Assembly: GCA_965240365.1 (NCBI GenBank)
Contig: OZ251218.1
Location: 258,689-322,688 of the forward strand
Reading direction: 5' to 3'
Length of the DNA stretch: 64,000 nt
Source: Gammaproteobacteria bacterium
Lineage (GTDB): Bacteria > Pseudomonadota > Gammaproteobacteria > Eutrophobiales > Eutrophobiaceae
In this document: positions 4,771 through 57,592 of the stretch, piece by piece
Layout: every line of letters begins with the position of its first letter
Position numbering within the stretch: the stretch's first letter is position 1
Notes under the pieces: generated by a model
Database searches by the model: none
What the model was told of the DNA's origin: nothing
The model's input: only the letters and a program-made list of their open reading frames with translations
Made by a program: the position numbers and the translations under genes

Positions 4771-5613
4771 TTACAGCACCAGTTTCTTTTCGGTCGGCTC
4801 CAGATTGTCATAGTTCCATAACTGTTTGCCTGACTCGATCTTGCTCATGTTTTCAACGCCATCCGGCGCGGACAGCCCATACAAACGGAGCTTGTGTTCA
4901 AGGTATTGAATATCAAGTTCGGTTAAATCGGCCTGCACGGCGTCCACGCCCAGGCTTTTGGCCTTGCCGCCCAGATAGATCGTGCCGTCGTACATGGAAT
5001 CACCGAGATTTTCGCCGGCATCGCCCAAGATGATCAGCCGGCCGCGCTGCATCATAAAACCGGTAAAGGCCCCCACGCTGTCACCGACAATGATAGTGCC
5101 GCCCTTCTGGTCAATGCCGACCCGGGCGCCGGCGCGCCCTTTGCAAACCAGATCGCCGCCCCGGATCGCGGCGCCGAACAATGAGCCGGCATTCTTTTCA
5201 ATCACGACCGTGCCGGCCAGCATATTTTCGCCGCATGACCAGCCCACGCGGCCATTGATGCGGACATTCGGCCCGTCGATCAAGCCGCAGGCGAAATAAC
5301 CCAAGCTGCCCTCAAAATCCAGCTTAAGGCGATTGAGGATGCCCACCCCCAGGGCATGTTTGCCCATTGGATTGGTAATCGTGATCGCGCCATAACCTTC
5401 CTTCATCAGTTCCCGCAGCCGGCGATTGATCTCGGAGTTGCTCATTTCGGCGCAGTCGAATTCCGCTGCCTTGTCGAAATCTACGGCATAGGCATAGGCA
5501 TGCACAAAGTTTTCTTCCTCGGAAGACGAGAAATAAATTTGCTGGCTGCGCCCGGCCAGTTGTTCATCGTGCATCCCCATTGCATGGGATTTATGTTCTT
5601 CTACGCCTGCCAT
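4771..5613 (-). CDS. glutamate synthase GXGXG-domain protein (GltB C-terminal domain; MgsB/GlxC-like), module 1
   Basis: Repeated glycine-rich GxGxG motifs typical of the GltB C-terminal domain: GDLVCKGRAGARVG, IIVGDSVGAFTGFMM, LIILGDAGENLGDSM. Confidence 0.85.
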   Translation of the reverse strand: MAGVEEHKSHAMGMHDEQLAGRSQQIYFSSSEEENFVHAYAYAVDFDKAAEFDCAEMSNSEINRRLRELMKEGYGAITITNPMGKHALGVGILNRLKLDFEGSLGYFACGLIDGPNVRINGRVGWSCGENMLAGTVVIEKNAGSLFGAAIRGGDLVCKGRAGARVGIDQKGGTIIVGDSVGAFTGFMMQRGRLIILGDAGENLGDSMYDGTIYLGGKAKSLGVDAVQADLTELDIQYLEHKLRLYGLSAPDGVENMSKIESGKQLWNYDNLEPTEKKLVL

Positions 5614-6539
5614 ACCAGCACCTCTCCTTCGTAGGGATCAAAAGTGTCAATCTCGCGCGGGAAGATGCTGCGTATCGCAATTTCTTCCGATGCCAGCCCG
5701 ACAAATTCATCACTTTCATAAACGACCATGGGCTTTGCCGCCATGGTGTCTTTGGCCATGCCTAATTGATCACGGGTCGCTACCAGATAGGAAAACACGC
5801 CGTCAAGGTATTTAACGGAACTGTTCATGGCCGTTTCCAGGTCATCGCCCTGGCGCATGCGATCGGCGATATAGACCGCGATCAGTTCAGAGTCGCAGTT
5901 GGACATAAAGCGGTGGCCGCGCCGCTCCAGGTCGCGGCGGTGGCTCCAGTAATTGGTCAACTGGCCATTGTGCACCAGCGACACATCACTGAACGGATAG
6001 GCCCAATAGGGATGGGCGGAACGAATATCCACATCGGACTCCGTGGCCATGCGGCTGTGGCCTATGGCATGGGTGCCCTCAAAGCCGGCCAGGTCATATT
6101 GCGCGGACACGGTGCTGGAATCGCCGAGATCCTTGATCAACTCCAGCGCGTTGCCCAGGGACAACACTTCGACCCCCTCGATGTCCTCGATGTAATCAAT
6201 CAGGCGGGTCATATCGCCAGCGAAACCGAACACATAACGATGCGAGTATTCGGTCGCGGCCGCTTGGTCTTTAAGCCTGACCCCCATTTCCCGCAAACGG
6301 GTCTTGACCGTCTGTTCGCGTTCCTTGATCTGTTTATGGATATAAAATCCGGTACGCAGATCTTCCTGCTCGGCCGTTTTGAAACGCATGACATAATCGT
6401 CCTTGTCCGCCTTGCCATAAAGGGCAAAACCGGTTGAATCCGGCCCCCTGTGCTTCAGCGCCTGCAACATTGAGGTCATTTCCATGCCGATGTTCGAGGT
6501 CGTGCCTCCCTTCCAGATAAGTCCGGCAATACCACACAT
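5601..6539 (-). CDS. class-II (Ntn) glutamine amidotransferase domain protein (GltB N-terminal domain; MgsA/GlxB-like), module 1
   Basis: N-terminal MCGIAGL with catalytic Cys at position 2, and a HNGQLTNY-type motif. Confidence 0.85.
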   Translation of the reverse strand: MCGIAGLIWKGGTTSNIGMEMTSMLQALKHRGPDSTGFALYGKADKDDYVMRFKTAEQEDLRTGFYIHKQIKEREQTVKTRLREMGVRLKDQAAATEYSHRYVFGFAGDMTRLIDYIEDIEGVEVLSLGNALELIKDLGDSSTVSAQYDLAGFEGTHAIGHSRMATESDVDIRSAHPYWAYPFSDVSLVHNGQLTNYWSHRRDLERRGHRFMSNCDSELIAVYIADRMRQGDDLETAMNSSVKYLDGVFSYLVATRDQLGMAKDTMAAKPMVVYESDEFVGLASEEIAIRSIFPREIDTFDPYEGEVLVWQA

Positions 6540-6559
6540 AATTCTTTTGCCTCTTGAAT

Positions 6560-6780
6560 TAATAACAAATTACAGCCTTGAATCTGGCGCTGTAAACAGA
6601 AACTACGGGTTATTCAACACCCCGGCATCCTTTCCCTGGATTCCTCGGCAGCTTGTTCCAGACCTGCCTGCAGCAGGCAGGCGCTGCTCTACCACCTGCG
6701 TCCATGCAGGCGGGCTTTCGCTGGAATGACGATGGAGTGATACGGACAAATCACGGCAATCCCGGTTTTCACTCCCGCTC
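6560..6780. repeat. composite small repeat (palindromic unit CCTGCCTGCAGCAGGCAGG plus a ggctttcgctggaatgac unit) in the GS-like/amidotransferase intergenic gap
   Basis: The sequence recurs near 41540-41660, 43920-43990 and 48780-48900 in this window. Confidence 0.6.
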
Positions 6781-6805
6781 CTGGCATCACTGAATCAGGA
6801 TTTCC

Positions 6806-8278
6806 TCAAGGCAGACAATCCATATAGGTTTCGCGGTCCCAGTCCGTGACCATGTGATTGAATCTTTCCCACTCGTCATTCTTGTAGTGCATGTAAACAT
6901 CATACATTTCGCCCGGCAGGGCCGACTTAATGATGTCATCCTGCTGCAGTTTTTCGAGCGCCGCGCCCAGTGACATCGGCAGTTTCCTGACCTGCTTGCC
7001 GGCGTCCATGGCCTCGTAAATATTGCGTTCTTCCGGTTCGCCCGGATCCAGATCGCGCGTGATCCCGTCATCAAACGCCTTTAACAGGGCCGCGGCCATC
7101 AGGTACGGATTCACCATGGAATCCACGGAACGATATTCGAAGCGGCCCGGCGCCGAGACGCGCAGGGCGCAGGTGCGGTTTTGATAGCCCCAGTCGGCGA
7201 ACACCGGCGCCCAGAAACCGGTGTCCCACAGGCGCCGGTATGAGTTGACCGTTGATGAGCCGATTGCGGTCAATGCTCCCAGATGTTTAATCACGCCACC
7301 GATGGCTTGCAGACCGACCGGCCCCGGTTTGCGCGCGTCAATTTCCGGCGCCGGCAGAAACAGATTCTCGCCGCCTTCAAGATAGGTAAAGACCCCCGCC
7401 ATGGCCGGCAGTGTGTCCTGATGCAGGTTTTTAACCTTGTCTTCGCCGCCGCGCCATAAAGAGACGTTATGATGACAACCCGAGGCCGACACGCTCATAA
7501 ACGGTTTGGTCATAAAACAGGCAATCAGGTTTTGCTCACGGGCAACCTGGGCGCAGATCTGGCGATAGGTCGTCAGGCGATCACAATTACGCATCACTTC
7601 ATCAAACATCCAGTTCAATTCCAGTTGGCCCGGCGCGTCTTCATGGTCGCCCTGAATCATGTCAAAGCCCATTTTCTGGGCGTATTCGATCACTTTTATT
7701 GAAGCGGGACGCAGTTCTTCAAATTGATCGATGTGATAACAGTTGGGCTTGGTCACGCCGCCATCGGGGCGGCCGTCTTCGCCCCGTTTTAACCACATCA
7801 TTTCCGGTTCGGTGCCGATTCGAAGATGCAGGCCATTGTGCTTCTGCTTGAACGCCTCGTGGATGATACGCAGGTTGCCGCGGCAATCCGAGCTTAAATG
7901 CGCGCCCGGATTTTCCTTTTCTTCGCGGTTGCGGAAACAGGTGCAGAAGACCCGGGCAAAGCGTTTGTCCCAGGGCAGTTGACAGAAGGTCTCCGGGTCC
8001 GGGATGCCCACCAGTTCCGACGCCTCCGGCCCGTAGCCGATGTAATTGCCGTGCCGGTCGATGAACAGGTTGGCCGTTGAACCATAAACCAGTTGAAAGC
8101 CTCTTTCGGCAATGCGTTCCCAATGATCGGCCGGGGCCCCTTTACCCACGATACGGCCCGTTACCGAGACAAACTGAAAATAAATATAGGTGATACCCAG
8201 TTCGTCAATCTTTGCGCGTACCTGTTCGACCCGTTCGGCCCGGCCCGGCGCTGCCACATGCGCTTCCAGTTCTGTCAT
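6806..8278 (-). CDS. glutamine synthetase family protein, type III/GmaS/PuuA-like gamma-glutamyl ligase (490 aa), module 1
   Basis: GS catalytic-domain conservation (NGLHLRIGTEPEMMW, HEDAPGQLELNW) and an N-terminal beta-grasp region. Its length and position match a gamma-glutamyl-amide synthetase next to split-GOGAT genes. Confidence 0.8.
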   Translation of the reverse strand: MTELEAHVAAPGRAERVEQVRAKIDELGITYIYFQFVSVTGRIVGKGAPADHWERIAERGFQLVYGSTANLFIDRHGNYIGYGPEASELVGIPDPETFCQLPWDKRFARVFCTCFRNREEKENPGAHLSSDCRGNLRIIHEAFKQKHNGLHLRIGTEPEMMWLKRGEDGRPDGGVTKPNCYHIDQFEELRPASIKVIEYAQKMGFDMIQGDHEDAPGQLELNWMFDEVMRNCDRLTTYRQICAQVAREQNLIACFMTKPFMSVSASGCHHNVSLWRGGEDKVKNLHQDTLPAMAGVFTYLEGGENLFLPAPEIDARKPGPVGLQAIGGVIKHLGALTAIGSSTVNSYRRLWDTGFWAPVFADWGYQNRTCALRVSAPGRFEYRSVDSMVNPYLMAAALLKAFDDGITRDLDPGEPEERNIYEAMDAGKQVRKLPMSLGAALEKLQQDDIIKSALPGEMYDVYMHYKNDEWERFNHMVTDWDRETYMDCLP

Positions 8279-10971: not shown

Positions 10972-11132
10972 TTTTAAGGAAACTCTGATTGAATCAGAGT
11001 TTCCTGCGGTACAGGGATGTACCGCCAAAATCAATGATGCAAGTCATTGATTTTGAAGCAAGGTGAAAATCGCATTTTCACCTTGCGTGCTCTGAGAAAT
11101 CCAGGATGGATTTATTCAGAGCTTCCTTAAAT
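10972..11132. mobile_element. MITE-like element 'E' copy 1 (about 155 bp, TTAA-flanked, imperfect 15-bp terminal inverted repeats, three internal hairpins)
   Basis: It starts TTAAGGAAACTCTGATTGAATCAGAGTTTCC and ends TCAGAGCTTCCTTAA. Near-identical copies lie at 39770-39950 and 57439-57592, and a fragment at 31020-31060. Confidence 0.7.
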
Positions 11133-35539: not shown

Positions 35540-35756
35540 AATGCCGTCATTTTGGCATGACTTTCCGGGTGCTATGGCGACTTGTGCCAGGCGCCGCTTG
35601 TACAGGTTCAGACAGCAGTGAGACTTTTTTGAGAAAAGAAATCGGTTAGCCTGTGAGTGATTAACACACACGGGAGACTACCCGGCCTTCTGCCGCCTGC
35701 CTGCCACAGGCAGACCGGAATCACGGAGTGTTGAGTATGAAGATTGCCGGGATGTG

Positions 35757-35935
35757 TCCATCCCTATGTCGTCATTCCGGCGAAGGCCGGAATCCAGTGG
35801 TTTATGTCATACATTCCCGCTTTAGCGGGAATGACAATTAGACAGGACTGGCGCTCATTTCACATCCCGGCCCGCACTCCTGGATTCCGGCCTTCGCCTG
35901 CCTGCCGCAGGCAGGCGCGAAGCAGCCCTGATTTG
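35757..35935. mobile_element. MITE-like element of the 'gtcattccggcgaaggccggaatccagtgg' family (units A+B+C)
   Basis: Near-identical about 140-bp copy at 41437-41580. Related copies at 43590-43790, 48636-49030 and 55905-55990. Confidence 0.65.
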
Positions 35936-39769: not shown

Positions 39770-39950
39770 CCAGGAAACTCTGATTTAATCAGAGTTTCCT
39801 GCGGCACAGGGACCTGCCTGCTGCAGGCAGGTGTGCCGCCAAAATCAATGACGCCAGTCATTGATTTTGAAGCAAGGTGAAAATCGCATTTTCACCTTGC
39901 GTGCTCTGAGAAGTCCTGGATGGACTTATTCAGAGCTTCTACTATACACC
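39770..39950. mobile_element. MITE-like element 'E' copy 2, with the palindromic unit nested inside its second hairpin
   Basis: Same sequence as copy 1 apart from an inserted CCTGCCTGCTGCAGGCAGG within ggcacaggga...tgtgcc. Confidence 0.7.
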
Positions 39951-41356: not shown

Positions 41357-41880
41357 GGGTCACCTCATCTAAAATAAGGTGTCAGTTATCCTGGCCACGG
41401 TATCGTTAGGATCACTCATAATGCGCCTATCGCCCCTGTCGTTATTCCAGCGAAAGCTGGAATCCAGTGGTTTATGCCATACATTCCCGCCCAGGCGGGA
41501 ATGACAATTAGACAGAACTGGCGCTCATTTCACATCCCGGCCGGCCCTCCTGGATTCCGGCCTTCGCCTGCCTGCAGCAGGCAGGCCGGGCGGCTACGGG
41601 CGTCCTCGGCAGCTTGTTCCAGACGCTGCTCTACCACCTACGTCCTGTAGGCGTGCCCTCACGCCGCATACAGGACATCCTGTCCATAAATGACGACGAG
41701 GTGTTGTTTTGGCTTTCCGTTATCCTGCCTGTCTGCAAGAGGCAGGGCTTTAGCGGGAACACAGGGTCACCTCATCTAAAATAACGCTCAGGTATTCTGG
41801 CCACGGTATCGTTGGTATCGCTCATATCGCCCGCTATGTTAGCAATTTAGATGAGGTGACTCTGGGCCCTAAGCCCACTC
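41357..41880. repeat. composite repeat block: about 80-bp direct repeats (gggtcacctcatctaaaata...) flanking a MITE copy, plus an inverted partial copy at the end
   Basis: Copies at 41357-41440 and 41763-41840. The inverted segment ttagatgaggtgactctggg is at 41846-41866. Confidence 0.6.
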
Positions 41881-43559: not shown

Positions 43560-44000
43560 CGGAATGATGTAAAGCCGGAACAACACCCCATCGTCATTCC
43601 AGCGAAAGCTGGAATCCAGTGGTTGATACAATACATTCCCGCATAAGCGGGAATGACCATCTGAATACCTCATTCCAACCGACCCCGCTGAGTTACCTGC
43701 CACCCCGCTACCTGCCTGCGGCAGGCGTGGATTCCAGCTTTCGCTGGAATGACGAAACTGTTGTCATTTTGGCCTACCTGCTGCCCGCAGGCCATCTCCG
43801 TTCTGTCCTGGTCATCAATTAAGCCAGAATTATTGCAATTACCCACTCGGATTTTAAAAGAGGCCTTTAACACTTCTGTAAGCTCATCTTCACTGCCATA
43901 TGGCCAAAGCCGGTAATTCGTCATTCCGGCGAAGCTCGCCTACAGGACGTAGGTGGTAGAGCGGCGCCTGCCTGCTGCAGGCAGATCTGGAACAGGCCAC
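43560..44000. repeat. MITE/repeat block (units A, B, C; about 25-bp TIRs gtcattccagcgaaagctggaat...attccagctttcgctggaatgac)
   Basis: Terminal inverted repeats can be read directly. The same units recur elsewhere in the window. Confidence 0.65.
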
Positions 44001-48399: not shown

Positions 48400-49170
48400 G
48401 TCATTCCGGCCGGCTGGCCTGTTGCGGGCAGGCAAAAGCCGGGATCAATTTTACATCTTGACATTGCCTTCCTCGGCGACTGTTCCGACCTGCCCGCAGC
48501 AGGCAGGCGCCGCTCTATCACCTACCTCCTTTAGGCGAGCTTCCGCCGGAATGACGGCAGGAGTGGATGAAATACTGGTTATTATTCCGGCTTGCCTGCT
48601 GCAAGCAGGTCGAGTGACAGGAAATCAGAAAAACACTTCGTTGTCATTCCAGCGAAAGCTGGAATCCAGTGGTTTATATGACATTCCCGCCTGAGCCTGC
48701 CCAGCGGGAATAACAACAAATACTTCATTCTGACCGGCTTGGTACGGCCAGACAGCATCGCAATCCGTTTTACATCCCGGCGCCGCCCTCCTGGATTCCT
48801 CGGCGGCCTGTTCCTGACGCCGCTCTACCACCTGCATCCATGCAGGCGAGCCTTCACCTGCCTGCAGCAGACAGGCTGGAATGACGATGGGGCGTTGTTC
48901 TGGCTTTACGTCATTCCCGCCTATCTGCAACAGGTCGACCGAAATAACTTAGTTAGTTGTCATTCCCGCAGGCGGGAATGTATGACATAAACCACTGGAT
49001 TCCGGCCTTCGCTGGAATGACGACGGGGGAATAGACAAATTCCGGCAACCTTGAATGTCATTCTCAACCCCTGCATCATTCTGATCTGCTAACTGCTGCA
49101 GGCAGGTCTGCGAAATCTGCAGATGACATGCCTACCTGATTTGTCTCATAGGTATTGAACCCGCGCATAA
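48400..49170. repeat. dense block of MITE/palindromic repeat units (A, B, C, D) between lysA and vapC
   Basis: Several copies of the gtcattccagcgaaagctggaatccagtgg, acattcccgc...gcgggaat and cctgcctgcagcaggc units. The 33-bp unit D lies at 49137-49170 with a hairpin. Confidence 0.65.
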
Positions 49171-49402
49171 ACGCGGGTTTCGTTAAAATGAAGTCTGATT
49201 CCGCCGAAGACCCCACTATGGCCGAAGACATCCGAGCTTTGGCTCAATGAATTTGCAAGCACCTCACTCTGGCCAGGCAGTCTTTATGTTGGATTTATTT
49301 TTATGATGCGCCACCCTTTTCAAAGACCAAGCTGGCGCCACTAAGTAGCGGACGGCGGGCATTTGCATATGATCCACTTACAAGGCACAACGTCAGCTTG
49401 CA

Positions 49403-49864
49403 TCAAGAACTAAAAAAGATGAGCCATTTCGCGCCGCCATCAGCATGTCTATTCCCAGGGATCAACAGCGCCACCCCCGTGGACGCGAAATCTTGAATAT
49501 TACGGGTGACCACCGGCAGGCCATGCACCAGGGCTGTCGCCGCGATCAGGGCATCCCGGTCTGATTTGGCGTCAGGCACATGTAATTTGGCGCACTGTCT
49601 GGCCACGGCCATATCGACGGGCAATATGCGGCCGGCGAAGGCGGGCAACACCTGGGTTTCGAGCCAGGCGCGAAGCACGCTGCCTTGTGCAGGGTCGCGG
49701 CGCTCGGCCAGGAGCACGCCGGTTTCAAGTTCGAGCAGGGTAATCACCGACAGGTAAAGACTGGCGGCGGGAACGCTCTCCGCCCACGCCAGAACCCTCT
49801 GCCCGGCTTTACCTGACTTGGCCTTCCTCAGTTCAGAAATCACGTTGGTGTCGAGCAGATACAT
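49403..49864 (-). CDS. vapC: PIN-domain toxin VapC
   Basis: N-terminal MYLLDTNVISELRK with PIN acidic residues, coupled to the upstream antitoxin gene. Confidence 0.8.
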   Translation of the reverse strand: MYLLDTNVISELRKAKSGKAGQRVLAWAESVPAASLYLSVITLLELETGVLLAERRDPAQGSVLRAWLETQVLPAFAGRILPVDMAVARQCAKLHVPDAKSDRDALIAATALVHGLPVVTRNIQDFASTGVALLIPGNRHADGGAKWLIFFSS

Positions 49865-50121
49865 CAGGACAAGTCCGCCGGGCGGTAGAGTTCGGATTGG
49901 CCGCAGGGCGCTTCAAAATCAATGTCGGCGGCGCTCGGCATAGCCAGCAGTTCTGCAATACTTTTACCCTCGCCAGTGATCTTTTGATACGTCTCAATGG
50001 TCAACAGCACATGCGCGGCACGGCCTCGATCAGTAATAAAAACCGGCCCATCTATTGCCGCCCTTTTGGCCTGACTGACATCCTGATTGAATTCTCTGCT
50101 TGTGATGCTGGTAATGTTCAT
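49864..50121 (-). CDS. Phd/YefM-family antitoxin
   Basis: An 85-aa protein with a Phd-like N-terminus (SITSREFNQDVSQAKRAAIDGPVFITDRGR). Its stop overlaps the vapC start. Confidence 0.75.
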   Translation of the reverse strand: MNITSITSREFNQDVSQAKRAAIDGPVFITDRGRAAHVLLTIETYQKITGEGKSIAELLAMPSAADIDFEAPCGQSELYRPADLS

Positions 50122-50450
50122 CTGATTGTCCTCGCTAATGAATCGTAGTGTAGTGTATTAAATTTTTGAATGATATACACCTATGCTCCGAACCCGATAG
50201 TTTATGAGCAGGCGTAACGGGAGTAAACACCATGCAAGACATGATCAAACCACGCGCCATAAGCGCCATAAATTAACAATACAGGTATGCCGGAGTCATC
50301 GTGTGATGGAAGATAAACAAATAGAAGCCATTATAAATGCCACATTTCCGGGGCTGATATTTTTCTGCTGGGACCTGGATTTGGACGAGCAACTTATCGC
50401 GAAATACAAGCCCGATCAGATCCTGACGGAGCGGGGATCCGCCTTACCCC

Positions 50451-51697
50451 TTATGTTTGTTCAATTTGCCGTGTCCGGTCCGTGGGCGGGATTCTCAAAG
50501 GATCGGACGGCGTGAGCTCTACTTCATAGCGCGGAGTAAACGTTACGTTGCTAACCCGAGCCCCCTGAACACGATCGACACGGTAACTGCGGTGTTCGTC
50601 TTTGTTGGTATTCCATGCATGCAGAATGAGATGGTCTTCCTGTGTCCGCCGCAGCGAATAAGGTTCTATGCGTCTGGTCGAACCCTGGTAGTCCAGATCG
50701 ACACAGAGTCTGTTTGATGCGGCAAAACGGATGATTTCCAGGTAGTTTTGCTCTGTTTTGCTAACAGGAAGACGCAGTGAGCGTTCGCGAATAACGCTCT
50801 CGCCCGGCACCATTGTAAAGGCCGCGGGTATCTGCGCGACTTCGCCACCAGGCAGCCAGGTGAAAAACTCATCCAGAGCCTCCCAAAAGATTTTGATGGA
50901 TGGCAACGCGGGTAGCTGGTGGGCGAGCATAGTGGACCAGCCGCCAGCAAGGTTGTCGTAGTGGCCGTCAAGATCCTCGCGTTTCGGGACATCAATATCC
51001 TTGAATTCGCACTTTTGCCGAAGCACGTCGAGTAAAACGGATGCTGACGGACGGGTTTCGGTATTCCGGTAAAGGTTGATGACATCATAGAGGTCGCGCG
51101 GCCTCGCCCGTTCGGCGAGCGCGCGCACCTTTTCGCCAAACGCTTCTTCGTAGGCATAAGCGAGCACGGTGATACCATCTTCCGGGCAATCGCTGTAGGG
51201 GTGAAAGATGGGGACTTGCGCGGGCGATAGCACAAGAACCTCGTCCGCGGTGAGGTCCAGTTTAATCCGTGGCAGGGCCGATTTTGGAGAGACCGGTCCG
51301 CAATAGCTAAGCCTGCCCTGACAGCTTTTGTTGCCACGGGGATTTTCATAGGCCTCAAAATCCTGCTTATCGGCAACAAGTTCGAGACCGGCGCGTTCGT
51401 AGACCCACTCGGATATTTCGCCGAACACCCACTTCAGAAACGCCTCGTCAAGGTGAGCGGGTTCGGTCAGGGTGAAGTCGAGGTCTTCGGAAAAGCGGTA
51501 GGTTTCGAAGAAGTATTTTTTGAGACAGGTGCCACCCTTGAATACCCAGTGCTCGCGCAGTTCGTTATGCGCATAGATGCCGGCAAGCACCCACCGAGCG
51601 CATAGTCCTTCTCGACCACTTGAGGATTGAGGCCCAATATGCGGGCGATGTCGAGTAGTTCGCGCTTGCCGATCACGCCCGGCGCTCCCGCACCCAA
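50451..51697 (-). pseudogene. AbiEii/DUF1814 nucleotidyltransferase toxin with a C-terminal WYL-like domain; frameshifted by a 1-nt deletion near codon 30
   Basis: NTase motif FKGGTCLKKYF...RFSEDLDF. The C-terminal tail carries WYL-like RRIEPYSL...LILHAW...RSYRVDRV. Two overlapping minus-strand frames join at ggtgggtg; ggttgggtg is expected for ALGWVLAG. Confidence 0.65.
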
Positions 51698-52515
51698 CGG
51701 GCCGGAACGCGGAGTCTCCAGCGCGTGACGAGGCGCTTGTTGTCGAGCGCAGGGTCAAGCTGTGCGTGGCCCCTGGTCAGTCTCTGCCGGCAGCCTTCAA
51801 CCAGTTCGCTGGCCGTGACTTCGGTCTCAGCGAGAAAACCAAGACGCTTGAATACCGCGCCGTTGCCGAGCTTTTCCGCGTATGCAAGGAGCAACTCATC
51901 GTTGCGATCCTGGCGTTTGAAGTAAGCGGCGAGACAGTCGGCTACATGCTGAATGCCACCGCCTATCGGCGGTTCGTCGAGCATATCGATGATGGTGCGA
52001 TGGACATCCGACACCGCAATTCTTGTCCGGCCGCGCCAGACGGCCCTGGTTCCGAAGAAGAATTTTTTATCCCTGTGACGAAGAGTGAAAACCGTGCCCT
52101 GCCGTTCCAGCGCAGCCCGCCTGACGGCCCTTGCGGTAAAGACAAGAATGTCGCGAAATATCTGCTCGGTCAGATCCCAATGCTCGGCGGCGGTCCTGCC
52201 GCCGATGTAGGCGGGCTCAAAGAGCGCCGGGACCAATATCCAGGGGTCTTGTATCACCTGCCCGGCATCAAGCATTTCGATCGGCACAGGCACATAAACT
52301 CCCGGCCCGATGCGGCGAAGCCAGCCTTGAGAGACCCACCTGGAAAGCATCTTGGCCGCTTGTGTTCGGGTAAGGCGCAGGGTCTCGGCAGCGTCTTCAA
52401 TATGCACGAGATCGCTTGCCGCACCGACAACGGCAGCGAGGGCGGCCCTTCCGGCGGGCAATGTCTCAGGCGCATTCTTCATAATATAGTATAATATTAC
52501 TTCAAAAATTCGCAA
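51673..52515 (-). CDS. AbiEi-family antitoxin/transcriptional regulator (type IV toxin-antitoxin)
   Basis: An N-terminal winged HTH plus a C-terminal AbiEi-type domain, directly upstream of and overlapping the AbiEii gene. A 14-bp palindrome, AAATTCGCGAATTT, lies in its promoter at 52579-52592. Confidence 0.65.
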   Translation of the reverse strand: MRIFEVILYYIMKNAPETLPAGRAALAAVVGAASDLVHIEDAAETLRLTRTQAAKMLSRWVSQGWLRRIGPGVYVPVPIEMLDAGQVIQDPWILVPALFEPAYIGGRTAAEHWDLTEQIFRDILVFTARAVRRAALERQGTVFTLRHRDKKFFFGTRAVWRGRTRIAVSDVHRTIIDMLDEPPIGGGIQHVADCLAAYFKRQDRNDELLLAYAEKLGNGAVFKRLGFLAETEVTASELVEGCRQRLTRGHAQLDPALDNKRLVTRWRLRVPARWVRERRA

Positions 52516-52753
52516 TAATAAGGAATTTTAGTAATCATACTGTACTAAAATGATATAGCTTTGCCACGAAAATTCGCTAAATTCGCGAATTTTTGCAGTG
52601 GAAATATATCTGCCAGGCATCTAACCTTGTGCCAGTTACCTTCGCAAGGCAACAATGATTTCCAGTTCTTCCAATATTACGGTGTATGTGAATAGCTTTG
52701 AGGTGTATTCCGGCAGCGCATCGTCCGCCTCGCATGCCCCTTGCAGAACCGCC

Positions 52754-54010
52754 TCAGTTTCCGGAGCGCGGGGCGGGGCGCTGCCGGGAGCGGCGTTTCT
52801 TTTTTGGCGCCGGCCGGCGGCGGCGCTCTGCCACCGGCGGTTGGGGCGTGATCAGCAGCGCCTCGGTGATGGCCGCCGTCGGGATCGAATAGCCAATGTA
52901 GGATTCTATGTCCATCAGTGAATAGACATAGTTCTCGCAGGCAAAACTCACGGCATCGCCGCTCGCCCCGGCCCGCGCGGTGCGGCCTATGCGATGCACA
53001 TAGTCTTCCGAGTTCTGCGGCAGGTCATAATTAAAGACATGGCTCACATCCGGGATATGCAGGCCCCGCGCGGCCAGGTCGGTGGCGACCAGCACCTTCA
53101 AATCGCCCTTGCTGAAGGCGTTGAATAGACGCTGCCGCTGCCTTTGCGGGACATCGCCGGAGAGGACCGCGGCCTGTACATCATTGCCGGCCAGATACGA
53201 CCAGACGCGCTCGGCGACCCGTTTTGTGTTGACGAAGACAATGCTCCGGTTCGGTTTCACACTTTTCAACAGGCCCAGCAATAACGGCACCTTCTCGTCA
53301 TTGGCAACGTGATAGAGCACCTGACTGACCTTGTCAACGGTGAGCTTGTCCGGATTTATCCTGACCAGGGTCGGGCTGTTCATGTGCTCATAGGCCAGTT
53401 CCATCACCCGGTAAGACAAGGTCGCCGAAAACAGCATATTGCGCCGTTTTTCGGGGCGCGGCATGCGCCGCAGCAGATAACGGATATCGCTGATGAAGCC
53501 CAGGTCAAACATCCGGTCGGCCTCGTCCAGCACCACGACCTCGATCTGCTTCAAATTAAACAGGCGCTGCTTGAAATAGTCGATAGTGCGGCCGGGCGTG
53601 CCGACCAGGATATCGACCCCCTCTTTCAGCGCCGCGCGCTGCTTGTCATAGTCTATGCCGCCATAAACCAGCCCCAGCCTTAAACCGCAGTAGTGGTTGA
53701 AGAGTTCGGCGTCCTTGTGGATCTGGATCGCCAGTTCGCGCGTGGGCGCGATGATCAAGGCCCGCAGGCCGGTTTCCCTTTTGCGGTGATTGTTGAGCAG
53801 GAAGTGATAGGTTGACAATAGAAACGCGGCGGTCTTGCCCGTGCCGGTCTGGGCCTGGCCGGCAATATCGTGCCCTTGCAGCATTAACGGCAGACACTCG
53901 GCCTGAATTGGCGTACAATGGCTGAAATCAATTTCATCCAGGCGTTTCAGAAGGCGCTCATCCAGCGCAAACTGTCTGAATTCTGGCAGTTTATTCGGGT
54001 TTGTGGTCAT
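52754..54010 (-). CDS. rhlB: ATP-dependent RNA helicase RhlB (DEAD-box)
   Basis: Q-motif, AQTGTGKT, DEAD, SAT and HRIGRTAR motifs, and an Arg/Lys-rich C-tail. It is divergent from trxA-rho, the conserved synteny. Confidence 0.9.
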   Translation of the reverse strand: MTTNPNKLPEFRQFALDERLLKRLDEIDFSHCTPIQAECLPLMLQGHDIAGQAQTGTGKTAAFLLSTYHFLLNNHRKRETGLRALIIAPTRELAIQIHKDAELFNHYCGLRLGLVYGGIDYDKQRAALKEGVDILVGTPGRTIDYFKQRLFNLKQIEVVVLDEADRMFDLGFISDIRYLLRRMPRPEKRRNMLFSATLSYRVMELAYEHMNSPTLVRINPDKLTVDKVSQVLYHVANDEKVPLLLGLLKSVKPNRSIVFVNTKRVAERVWSYLAGNDVQAAVLSGDVPQRQRQRLFNAFSKGDLKVLVATDLAARGLHIPDVSHVFNYDLPQNSEDYVHRIGRTARAGASGDAVSFACENYVYSLMDIESYIGYSIPTAAITEALLITPQPPVAERRRRPAPKKKRRSRQRPAPRSGN

Positions 54011-54111
54011 TTTTTTTCGGGAAATTTAATGGGGAGCGCATGTCCGGCTTGCAATTAATGTCCAATTTCGATGAAATTGCGGTTTCACACAACGACAGGA
54101 TGACATGATCA

Positions 54112-54438
54112 ATGAGCGATACCATAGTACATATTACAGATTCCAGCTTTGAAGATGAAGTCTTAAAATCAGAACAGCCCGTAATCCTGGATTTTTGGGC
54201 GGAATGGTGCGGCCCCTGCAAGATGATCGCGCCGATCCTGGATGAACTGGCCGAACAATATAAGGGCAAATTGACCGTTGCCAAGATCAATATTGACGAG
54301 AATCAAAACACGGCCGAGACTTACGCGGTCAGGGGTATCCCGACCCTGATCCTGTTCAAGGACGGGGATGTGGCGGCCACCAAGGTCGGCGCCGCCTCAA
54401 AATCGCAACTGGAAGCCTTTATCGACACCAATATCTGA
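54112..54438 (+). CDS. trxA: thioredoxin
   Basis: WCGPC active site; 108 aa. Confidence 0.95.
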
Positions 54439-54620
54439 ACAGCGCCAGACAGGATAAATTTAACTGGACGAATGCCGGATCGCGTGCTAATTTAAAAAAG
54501 CGCCGGTATAATTCTCAACCGAAACACCAAACCCCCTTTTTCTTTAATCAATAAACGAATTTAGCGGCCGCCGCCCGTCTGCCGCCTGTTAAATCCAGAC
54601 CCGACAACCCACAGCCAGTA

Positions 54621-55886
<1,266 letters not shown>

Positions 55887-55904
55887 GCCGGCCGGAATAA
55901 TTTA

Positions 55905-55990
55905 TTTAGTTGTCATTCCCGCCTGCTTACAGCAGGCGGGAATGTATATTAAAAACCACTGGATTCCAGCTTTCGCTGGAATGACAGCGG
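55905..55990. repeat. partial MITE copy (units B+A) after rho
   Basis: gtcattcccgcctgcttacagcaggcgggaatg...ggattccagctttcgctggaatgac. Confidence 0.6.
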
Positions 55991-56058
55991 GGTTTCGGTT
56001 TACTTTCTATTTCTTCATTTTATTTCCGTCAATAACAGGCAGACACATTATCTAACAG

Positions 56059-56631
56059 GTGAGCAGACCGATACCGAAACGCTATAATCACTTTGGGCGG
56101 TTTTTATCCATGCCGGCAAAGTCCGCGAATGATGATATTCAACTGGCCTGCCTGGCCTTTGCGCCGATACTGTTGTCCGTAACAACGGCGCCGTATTTGC
56201 TCGCTACCGGGCTGTTGATCGTGTTGCTGTCTCTCTCGCTCGGTCTTTTTTTCTATCTGTTGCGTTCTTTTATCCCGCCGCGGCAAAGGCTGGTGTCCAT
56301 CATGCTGATGGGCGCGGGGTTGATCCTCACAAGCCGCCTGCTGCTTGAGGCAATGGCTTATCCCTGGCTGCAGGAGATCGGCGTATTATTCCCGTTATTG
56401 CTGTTTAACAGCTATATACTGTCAAACACGGAAGCCGTCTTTTCCCTGCCGGACGGCGGCGCGCTGCTGAAGACCCTGTTGCGCTCCGGCCTTGCCATCC
56501 TGGCCTTGTTCGCCTTGTTTGCCGCCGTGCTCGGCCTTTTGCGGCCCCTGGCGTGGTCAATCACGCCGCCGGCCTGGCTTTTTATTGCCGCGTTTATGCT
56601 GGCGGCAAATAATTATTTGAAGTCGTACTGA
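56059..56631 (+). CDS. Rnf/Nqr-family membrane subunit, RnfE/RsxE-like, orphan
   Basis: A six-TM protein whose helix pattern aligns with RsxE (LLSVTT..., VLFPLLLFNSYILSNTEAVF versus IFIPLIVTNCIVVGRAEAF). It sits next to nth as rsxE does in Escherichia coli, but no other rnf genes are present. Confidence 0.5.
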   Translation: MSRPIPKRYNHFGRFLSMPAKSANDDIQLACLAFAPILLSVTTAPYLLATGLLIVLLSLSLGLFFYLLRSFIPPRQRLVSIMLMGAGLILTSRLLLEAMAYPWLQEIGVLFPLLLFNSYILSNTEAVFSLPDGGALLKTLLRSGLAILALFALFAAVLGLLRPLAWSITPPAWLFIAAFMLAANNYLKSY

Positions 56632-57438: not shown

Positions 57439-57592
57439 TTAAGGAAACTCTGATTGAATCAGGGTTTCCTGCGGTAGAGGGACGTACCGCCCCAGAATCA
57501 ATAACTTGGCAATGATGCAAGTCATTGATTTTGAAGCCCTGCCTGCTGCAGGCAGGGAAATCCAGGATGGATTTATTCAGAGCTTCCTTAAG
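57439..57592. mobile_element. MITE-like element 'E' copy 3 (TTAA-flanked), with its third hairpin replaced by the palindromic unit
   Basis: ggTTAAggaaactctgattgaatcagggtttcc...ccctgcctgctgcaggcaggg...tcagagcttccTTAAgc. Confidence 0.7.

Follow-up and report, generated by a model that had tools for sequence, protein, structure and literature searches.

A probable abiEii–WYL toxin pseudogene beside an intact abiEi gene in a gammaproteobacterial AbiE locus

The stretch of gammaproteobacterial DNA analyzed here (64 kb of contig OZ251218.1, hereafter the window) carries an abiEi–abiEii gene pair that constitutes an AbiE-type toxin–antitoxin/abortive-infection module, and that belongs to a large subfamily in which the AbiEii toxin bears a WYL domain. 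The toxin gene is split by a 1-nt deletion, and comparison with closely related genomes makes it probable that abiEii is a genuine pseudogene undergoing near-neutral drift, its loss being real and not very recent. The partner gene, abiEi, appears with comparable confidence to be under purifying selection and, with its putative operators intact, to persist as an orphan autorepressor/antitoxin. The genes, the lesion and the domains of the toxin are as follows.

51673–52482, minus strand: abiEi, antitoxin and putative autorepressor gene; ATG start, 269 amino acids, reading frame intact.
50451–51676, minus strand: abiEii pseudogene; GTG start; codes for a DUF1814 nucleotidyltransferase toxin whose C-terminal part is a WYL domain; loss of 1 nt at codon 28 splits the gene.
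51593..51594, minus strand: site of the 1-nt deletion; CTCGG^TGGGTG in the window, CTCGGCTGGGCG in relatives.
50871–51590, minus strand: nucleotidyltransferase (AbiEii/DUF1814) domain; Pfam PF08843, E 1e-34, residues 57–296 of the open reading frame (ORF).
50553–50744, minus strand: WYL domain (RRIEPYSL ... LILHAW ... HRSYRVDRV); Pfam PF13280.

An earlier reading of the letters without database searches (the sequence-only reading) had proposed an AbiEi–AbiEii pair here, and Pfam and PADLOC matches to both genes bear this out. The arrangement is that of AbiE systems, being bicistronic with the antitoxin gene first and the genes overlapping; in particular, the GTG start codon of abiEii (51676) sits within the stop codon of abiEi, giving a 4-nt GTGA overlap on the same strand. 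AbiEi is a member of the AbiEi/COG5340 family, with a winged helix-turn-helix (HTH) at its N terminus and a COG5340-type C-terminal domain. It matches the PADLOC AbiEi model PDLC02271 at E 1e-125 (positions 4–262 of 263) and Pfam AbiEi_4 at 28.1 bits (cut-off 25), and an identical protein is found in NCBI/ENA. In a scan with NCBIfam the AbiEi equivalog reached only 14 bits against a cut-off of 150, a score so far under the cut-off that this AbiEi belongs to a different subfamily from that model; the toxin was matched by no NCBIfam model.

The toxin is encoded in two frames. The first 28 codons are read in the frame of ORF 51467–51697 and correspond to positions 1–33 of the PADLOC AbiEii model PDLC02317, which has 396 positions and spans both the nucleotidyltransferase and the WYL domain. 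The remainder lies in the frame of ORF 50451–51758, which resumes at position 29 of the model and matches it through position 395 (E 1.8e-182). When a single base is inserted behind CTCGG (between 51594 and 51593), the reading frame becomes continuous and encodes a protein of 408 amino acids that is 94% identical to P0001, an intact homologue of the same length; as it stands, the window offers no intact, expressible toxin reading frame. To place the missing base we used four related contigs (L001, L083, L082 and L084) that are ~96–98% identical to the window in DNA and share the gene order trx, DEAD-box helicase, abiEi, abiEii. A five-way alignment indicates that the deletion occurs in the window only: all four relatives retain an extra C (GGC TGG GCG, versus GG-TGGGTG in the window), so that the base lost is position three of the Gly28 codon. 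The sequence-only reading had thus seen the deletion correctly, near codon 30, but had expected the missing base to be a T.

That reading left open whether the frameshift reflects an inactivated toxin or a sequencing error. The substitution pattern favors inactivation, and an error is the less likely of the two. Counting only sites at which at least three relatives agree among themselves, the ratio of nonsynonymous to synonymous substitutions unique to the window is 12:6 in abiEii, compared with 2:8 in abiEi and 2:7 in the helicase gene (12:6 versus 4:15 for the two neighbors combined; Fisher one-sided p = 0.006). It is this lineage-specific contrast with the neighboring genes that argues for genuine inactivation. 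Two of the changes, C55Y and A208T, alter positions that are invariant in all 49 homologues. Consistent with these counts, of the 24 amino-acid differences between the window toxin and P0001, the window holds the minority state at 17 and P0001 at 6 when 48–49 other homologues are consulted, and pairwise dN/dS (the ratio of nonsynonymous to synonymous rates) against L083 is 0.46 for abiEii, compared with 0.13 for abiEi and 0.13 for the helicase gene.

If the missing base were instead an error of sequencing or assembly, the organism would possess an intact, working AbiEii–WYL toxin. Such an error would fit a lesion of a single base in what looks like a metagenome-derived chromosome; moreover, the related contigs have names in the style of long-read assemblers and coverage of 4–17x, and two low-coverage relatives carry likely indel errors of their own (L083 at 55642, 55585 and 54757; L082 at 53704, inside the helicase gene). 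The window itself does not show this behavior. Over the spans compared (49846–55707 against L001 and 51302–56287 against L084), the indels are confined to the frameshift base and one short indel between the −10 box and the abiEi ATG, and in ~10 kb of coding sequence aligned with the four relatives there is no window-unique coding indel beyond the frameshift; the assembly of the window is thus not generally indel-prone. In addition, the deletion site is not a homopolymer run, and an excess of nonsynonymous changes, two of them at invariant positions, would not be expected in a functional gene. Several points nevertheless weigh against inactivation: the frameshift is read from an assembled sequence; the substitution test compares small numbers (18 versus 19 substitutions); changes may be tolerated more readily in toxin genes than in housekeeping ones; and the pairwise dN/dS of abiEii, at 0.46, is below 1. 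On balance we consider an assembly error at 51594 unlikely.

Two further explanations would grant the window a real frameshift and a surviving toxin activity. Translation might restart at a GTG at codon 30, giving a toxin that is shortened by residues 1–29 and keeps some nucleotidyltransferase activity. A GTG does follow directly on the shift (GGT GGG TGC is read as G GTG GGT G...), from this point the long frame runs on without a stop, and the four catalytic motifs are all encoded further downstream. Yet a usable ribosome-binding spacing is absent, the segment lost would include the invariant residues E22, K23, D24 and Y25 together with a predicted helix, and the neutral substitution pattern, with C55Y and A208T, argues that selection on the protein has ceased; a restart therefore seems highly improbable. 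Least probable of all is a programmed or phase-variable frameshift, in which the toxin would be switched by ribosomal frameshifting or by slippage mutations. Its sole attraction is that the frameshift falls early in the toxin gene. We rejected it because CTCGGTGGGTG contains neither a slippery heptamer nor a homopolymer or short tandem repeat, and because the four close relatives, like all aligned homologues, are in frame at this point; furthermore, other relatives have been inactivated by unrelated lesions.

Those lesions place the pseudogene in the window among repeated losses of the toxin. The abiEii genes of L001 and L083 are intact and encode 408 amino acids. By contrast, L082 carries a stop codon at Y239 that arose by substitution, and the 3′ end of its abiEii is cut after residue 375, with insertion sequence (IS)-type transposase genes directly downstream; in L084 an IS630-type transposase gene is inserted after about codon 125, and a second truncation lies beside an IS-type transposase gene. 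The window, L082 and L084 thus carry unlike lesions, and the toxin has therefore been inactivated by different routes in three of the five genomes, which on these alignments amounts to at least three separate losses. The gene for the antitoxin is present in all five, although the L084 copy lacks its ATG. Repeated loss of the toxin with abiEi kept hints that selection maintains some function of the orphan AbiEi itself, for example protection against incoming related toxins or regulation. (Note that the abiE locus serves as an IS landing site in both L084, at 5123–7478, and L082, at 5943–6745, where IS630-type DDE_3 and DDE_Tnp_1 with DUF4096 elements interrupt or truncate abiEii.)

Upstream of abiEi we identified the following elements.

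52488–52515, minus strand: predicted sigma-70 promoter, TTGCGA-16-TATACT, from a promoter scan; the sole sigma-70-like promoter found.
52507–52527: putative proximal operator, AATTC-N11-GAATT, on the minus strand AAAATTCCTTATTATTGCGAATTTTT; the right arm reaches into the −35 hexamer.
52569–52593: putative distal operator, a 25-bp perfect inverted repeat with 9-bp arms, AAAATTCGC-N7-GCGAATTTT; its core, AATTC-N11-GAATT, is at 52571–52591.
52579–52592: 14-bp perfect palindrome, AAATTCGCGAATTT, made up of the left arm of the distal operator and the beginning of its spacer.

The −10 hexamer of the promoter ends 5 nt ahead of the abiEi ATG and no Shine–Dalgarno sequence is visible at this start, from which it follows that the abiEi transcript is probably leaderless or nearly so, the transcription start being itself a prediction. 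A second −10-like box, TATATC, stands 13 nt downstream of the distal operator. The A/T-rich, TATTA-type tract between the −10 box and the ATG (52483–52498) varies in length, being 5–6 nt longer in three of the relatives; that of L083 is 36 nt longer, with the first codons of abiEi duplicated.

Exact matches to AATTC-N11-GAATT number three in the 64 kb, where 0.11 would be expected, and two of them, 64 bp apart, lie upstream of abiEi. (The third, at 6540–6560, AATTCTTTTGCCTCTTGAATT, is distant from abiE.) The proximal operator is identical in L001, L083 and L082, and in L084 it carries two substitutions in the spacer, both arms being unchanged; the left arm of the distal operator is polymorphic, with an A to G change at 52590 in L001, L083 and L082. 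The same motif recurs across the family. The 64 family loci examined average 0.83 sites each within one mismatch, compared with 0.016 in shuffled sequence, and the sites cluster at two preferred positions ~60–90 bp apart, usually as two copies. Alignment of 53 family sites gives aAATTCnC..WWW.tGnGAATTTt.GC, in which conserved columns extend outside the pattern used for the search, and a TATA box follows the repeat at a fixed distance of 13 nt. The promoter thus has, at the level of sequence, the inverted repeats that accompany AbiE autoregulation, and the arrangement fits a role for the two AATTC-N11-GAATT repeats as AbiEi operators through which the protein would repress its own synthesis. 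Set against this assignment are the 24 of 64 family loci that have no site within one mismatch, and the fact that binding of AbiEi to the proposed operators is itself a prediction.

The sequence-only reading had located the autoregulatory element in the 14-bp palindrome. The palindrome is present and lies within a conserved operator, but it is not a functional element by itself: 11 perfect palindromes of this length occur in the window, and in three of the four close relatives the palindrome is imperfect (AAGTTCGCGAATTT). We accordingly rejected it as an operator in its own right; what meaning it has comes only from the family-conserved operator that encloses it.

The toxin, once repaired, is of 408 amino acids, compared with 238 positions in the Pfam AbiEii model and ~290 amino acids in solved MenT toxins. 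Searches with hidden Markov models (HMMs) of the AbiEii and WYL families, which the sequence-only reading had proposed as a check, matched both PF08843 and PF13280, the latter scoring 30.4 bits over the whole ORF and 33.1 bits for the last 139 residues alone (cut-off 21.8), and the PADLOC WYL models match the C-terminal region at E 3.9e-10. The suggestion of a longer-than-usual toxin with a WYL-like C-terminal extension was therefore well founded, and the concern that the extension might be a separate, mis-merged ORF is countered by its occurrence within a single ORF in thousands of homologues. Motifs I–IV of the nucleotidyltransferase can still be read in the window toxin (G48 and G49; R61, S63, D65 and D67; K183; D195), and G48, G49, R61, D65, D67, K183 and D195 are invariant across the family alignments, as expected of a toxin of this nucleotidyltransferase class. 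In the Streptococcus agalactiae AbiEii the catalytic motif residues are G49/G50, R63, D67, D69, K173 and D192 (PMC3985639), and T65 is the phosphoacceptor of motif II according to a 2026 preprint (bioRxiv 10.64898/2026.01.19.700257); S63 of the window toxin aligns with this threonine.

Evidence on the fold comes from a homologue, P0002, whose identity to the repaired window protein is 77% and whose structure was predicted with AlphaFold from a 50-sequence alignment. The model has a mean predicted local distance difference test (pLDDT) score of 79.9, and its WYL region, one helix followed by all beta strands, has a pLDDT of ~89–95. When the model was compared with the PDB by Foldseek, the top matches were MenT4 and MenT3/TglT for the nucleotidyltransferase part (E 3e-7 to 5e-6), followed by PafBC, CapW, BrxR and DriD for the WYL part (probability 0.9–1.0). 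On the strength of this model, the C-terminal extension is predicted to have the fold of solved WYL domains.

The AbiEii–WYL fusion is not new. A WYL domain fused to an "AbiGII-like nucleotidyltransferase (DUF1814)" was listed, and a ligand-sensing role predicted for it, by Makarova et al. in 2014 (PMC4012209), and the fusion is modelled in PADLOC. It is also very common, which answers a question raised in the sequence-only reading: the repaired protein has more than 7,555 homologues, 119 of the 120 best matches listed carry both PF08843 and PF13280, and at least 578 loci encode a relative in a scan of one genome per species. The hosts include Alpha-, Beta- and Gammaproteobacteria, Acidobacteriota, Thermodesulfobacteriota, Latescibacterota, Dadabacteria, Gemmatimonadota, Planctomycetes and others. 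The family is rare in viral contigs, where four loci were found in 2.9 million contigs. An exhaustive search with the WYL module of the window gave hits in 637 clusters formed at 50% identity, of which 322 reached E <= 1e-10, and in all 637 the search met no other architecture, only full-length AbiEii-type proteins and fragments. Many of the fragments begin ~20 residues ahead of the matched region, as would be expected if gene callers had started at the invariant M250 on cut contigs.

Most homologues, at 465–490 amino acids, are longer than the 408 residues found here, and in these the WYL domain is followed by a low-complexity linker and a motif of ~45 residues, GPTYxYQCxxCxKKFxRKxxxxxLNxHKxxxGxxCxG, whose C2HC pattern resembles a C2H2 zinc finger and which is predicted with a pLDDT of ~93 (for example, L002 5200–5434). 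The tail reaches no Pfam cut-off, showing weak C2H2 similarities only, and we found no description of it. Among 78 genomic loci the tail is present in 58 (~74%); 13 stop directly behind the WYL domain, like the window toxin, four are cut early and three have aberrant tails. An HMM of the tail detected neither a remnant nor a separate gene in any of the six frames of the window, and the intact P0001 terminates at the same residue as the window toxin. The short form is therefore, as judged from these alignments, a natural variant of this clade and not a fresh truncation or a part of the damage.

How intact members of the subfamily work can be sketched by analogy with systems described in PMC3985639, bioRxiv 10.64898/2026.01.19.700257 and PMC11375011. 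AbiEi of S. agalactiae represses its own promoter through inverted repeats (PMC3985639). By binding AbiEii, AbiEi also causes the toxin to auto-phosphorylate at the motif-II threonine and so to lose its activity, and free AbiEii or MenT toxins add pyrimidines to the 3′ ends of tRNAs and block translation (bioRxiv 10.64898/2026.01.19.700257, PMC11375011). We infer that intact members share this core AbiE/MenAT mechanism. In working relatives of the window locus, the winged-HTH AbiEi would thus bind the two AATTC-N11-GAATT repeats and, because each of these extends into the −35 region of a promoter-like element, would repress the abiEi–abiEii operon. AbiEi would, in addition, bind AbiEii and cause it to phosphorylate itself on the motif-II Ser/Thr (S63 here), turning the enzyme off, whereas unbound AbiEii would extend tRNA 3′ ends with nucleotides and so stop translation. 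The WYL domain, whose fold binds single-stranded nucleic acid in PafBC, DriD and CapW, would most likely add substrate binding or sensing of a trigger; its presumptive ligand, a single-stranded nucleic acid or a nucleotide, is suggested by the structures of DriD and CapW bound to single-stranded DNA and by the 2014 prediction. In the window, only the repressor half of the system likely works.

Each element of this scheme (DNA binding by AbiEi, auto-phosphorylation, the tRNA target and the role of the WYL domain) is a prediction by analogy. What weighs against carrying the scheme over is that it extrapolates from relatives with 14–19% identity when it assigns a tRNA target, a phosphorylation switch and a role for the WYL domain, because the literature searched yielded no characterized member of the subfamily with this domain. 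More speculatively, the WYL domain and the C2HC tail could form a built-in sensor of single-stranded nucleic acid that releases or redirects a tRNA-modifying toxin upon phage infection, alongside the role hinted at for orphan AbiEi; we offer this tentatively, as an idea that may well prove wrong. If it were true, the WYL sensor would be a toxin-borne trigger input of a kind not known for AbiE/MenAT systems.

As a decayed copy of a common, catalogued defense/toxin–antitoxin module, the window locus matters little in itself, and it calls for annotation of abiEii as a pseudogene and of abiEi as an orphan antitoxin/repressor. What may be useful beyond it is a case, made from sequence alone, for a real frameshift based on lineage-specific nonsynonymous and synonymous counts set against those of neighboring genes; an operator consensus for the family, aAATTCnC-N7-GnGAATTt, occurring twice with a fixed TATA box, that provides a handle on AbiEi autoregulation; and an unannotated C2HC tail that, together with the WYL domain, marks an uncharacterized branch of the well-studied AbiE/MenAT toxins. 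The residual interest lies in the WYL and zinc-finger branch as a whole and not in this broken copy.

The pair lies among core genes, with rho, trx and the DEAD-box helicase gene on one side and lysA on the other. Nothing in the base composition of the locus points to a foreign island, and no tRNA genes were found in the window. The host is an uncultured proteobacterium; the named hits of a LysA search were confined to metagenome-assembled genomes labelled Thiotrichaceae, Gammaproteobacteria or Pseudomonadota bacterium, none of them above 70% identity. Directly downstream of abiEii is a second toxin–antitoxin pair (49403–50121, minus strand), comprising a gene for a Phd/YefM antitoxin (49864–50121, 85 amino acids) and one for a PIN-domain toxin (49403–49864, 153 amino acids). 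L001 and L083 keep the Phd/YefM gene and lack the segment corresponding to 48661–49845 of the window, which holds the PIN gene and a repeat block, so that loss of a toxin with retention of its antitoxin is seen at this neighboring locus too. An ORF on the plus strand (50204–50515) converges on the 3′ end of abiEii, overlapping it by ~65 nt; it is called as a gene of 69 amino acids in L001 and L083, has no family match and is probably spurious.

The repeat block belongs to a set of intergenic repeats of 50–150 bp that resemble repetitive extragenic palindromic (REP) sequences or miniature inverted-repeat transposable elements (MITEs), with a hairpin core ATTCCAGC-GAAA-GCTGGAAT, at 48480–49052, 35740–35916, 41437–41586, 43591–43657 and 55886–55986; the copies clustered between lysA and the PIN gene fall within the segment that L001 and L083 lack. 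A second family of short repeats (10974–11125, 39774–39939 and 57439–57491) contains two perfect 25-bp inverted repeats, GAAACTCTGATTGAATCAGAGTTTC and AAGGTGAAAATCGCATTTTCACCTT, ~80 bp apart, and has at least two near-identical copies.

Among known systems, the AbiE modules of S. agalactiae and Lactococcus lactis (DUF1814/COG2253 toxin, COG5340 antitoxin; PMC3985639, Arrowsmith et al. 2026 preprint) resemble the window pair in their antitoxin-first order and 4-nt overlap, in a winged-HTH antitoxin with inverted repeats in its own promoter, and in motifs I–IV of the toxin, including a Ser/Thr at the motif-II phosphoacceptor (S63 here, T65 there). The window pair differs from them in that its toxin has ~130 extra C-terminal residues that form the predicted WYL domain and is encoded by a probable pseudogene, in an antitoxin of 269 amino acids, and in its putative operators, which are two 21-bp repeats 64 bp apart, each with a −10-like box, whereas those of S. 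agalactiae are two 23-bp arms 3 bp apart. The pair also resembles the subfamily described by PADLOC PDLC02317 and PDLC02271, to which it is similar end to end (E 1.8e-182 and 1e-125), with PF08843 followed by PF13280 and the operator motif upstream. Unlike most of that subfamily, the clade of the window, which is part of the short-form minority (13 of 78 loci), lacks the linker and C2HC tail, and the window copy is frameshifted.

For the nucleotidyltransferase part the best structural matches are MenT3 (TglT, Rv1045) and MenT4 (Rv2826c) of Mycobacterium tuberculosis, which are the basis on which we propose extension of tRNA 3′ ends and control by auto-phosphorylation; their identity to the toxin is 14–19% and they have no WYL domain. 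(Note that MenA3, the antitoxin of MenT3, is unrelated to MenA1, the antitoxin of MenT1.) PafBC, DriD, CapW and BrxR, for their part, have a C-terminal domain of the same fold as the extension, and in PafBC, DriD and CapW this domain binds single-stranded DNA as an activating signal. Those proteins are HTH–WYL–WCX transcription factors, whereas in the AbiEii toxin the WYL domain is fused to an enzyme, with neither an HTH nor a WCX domain.

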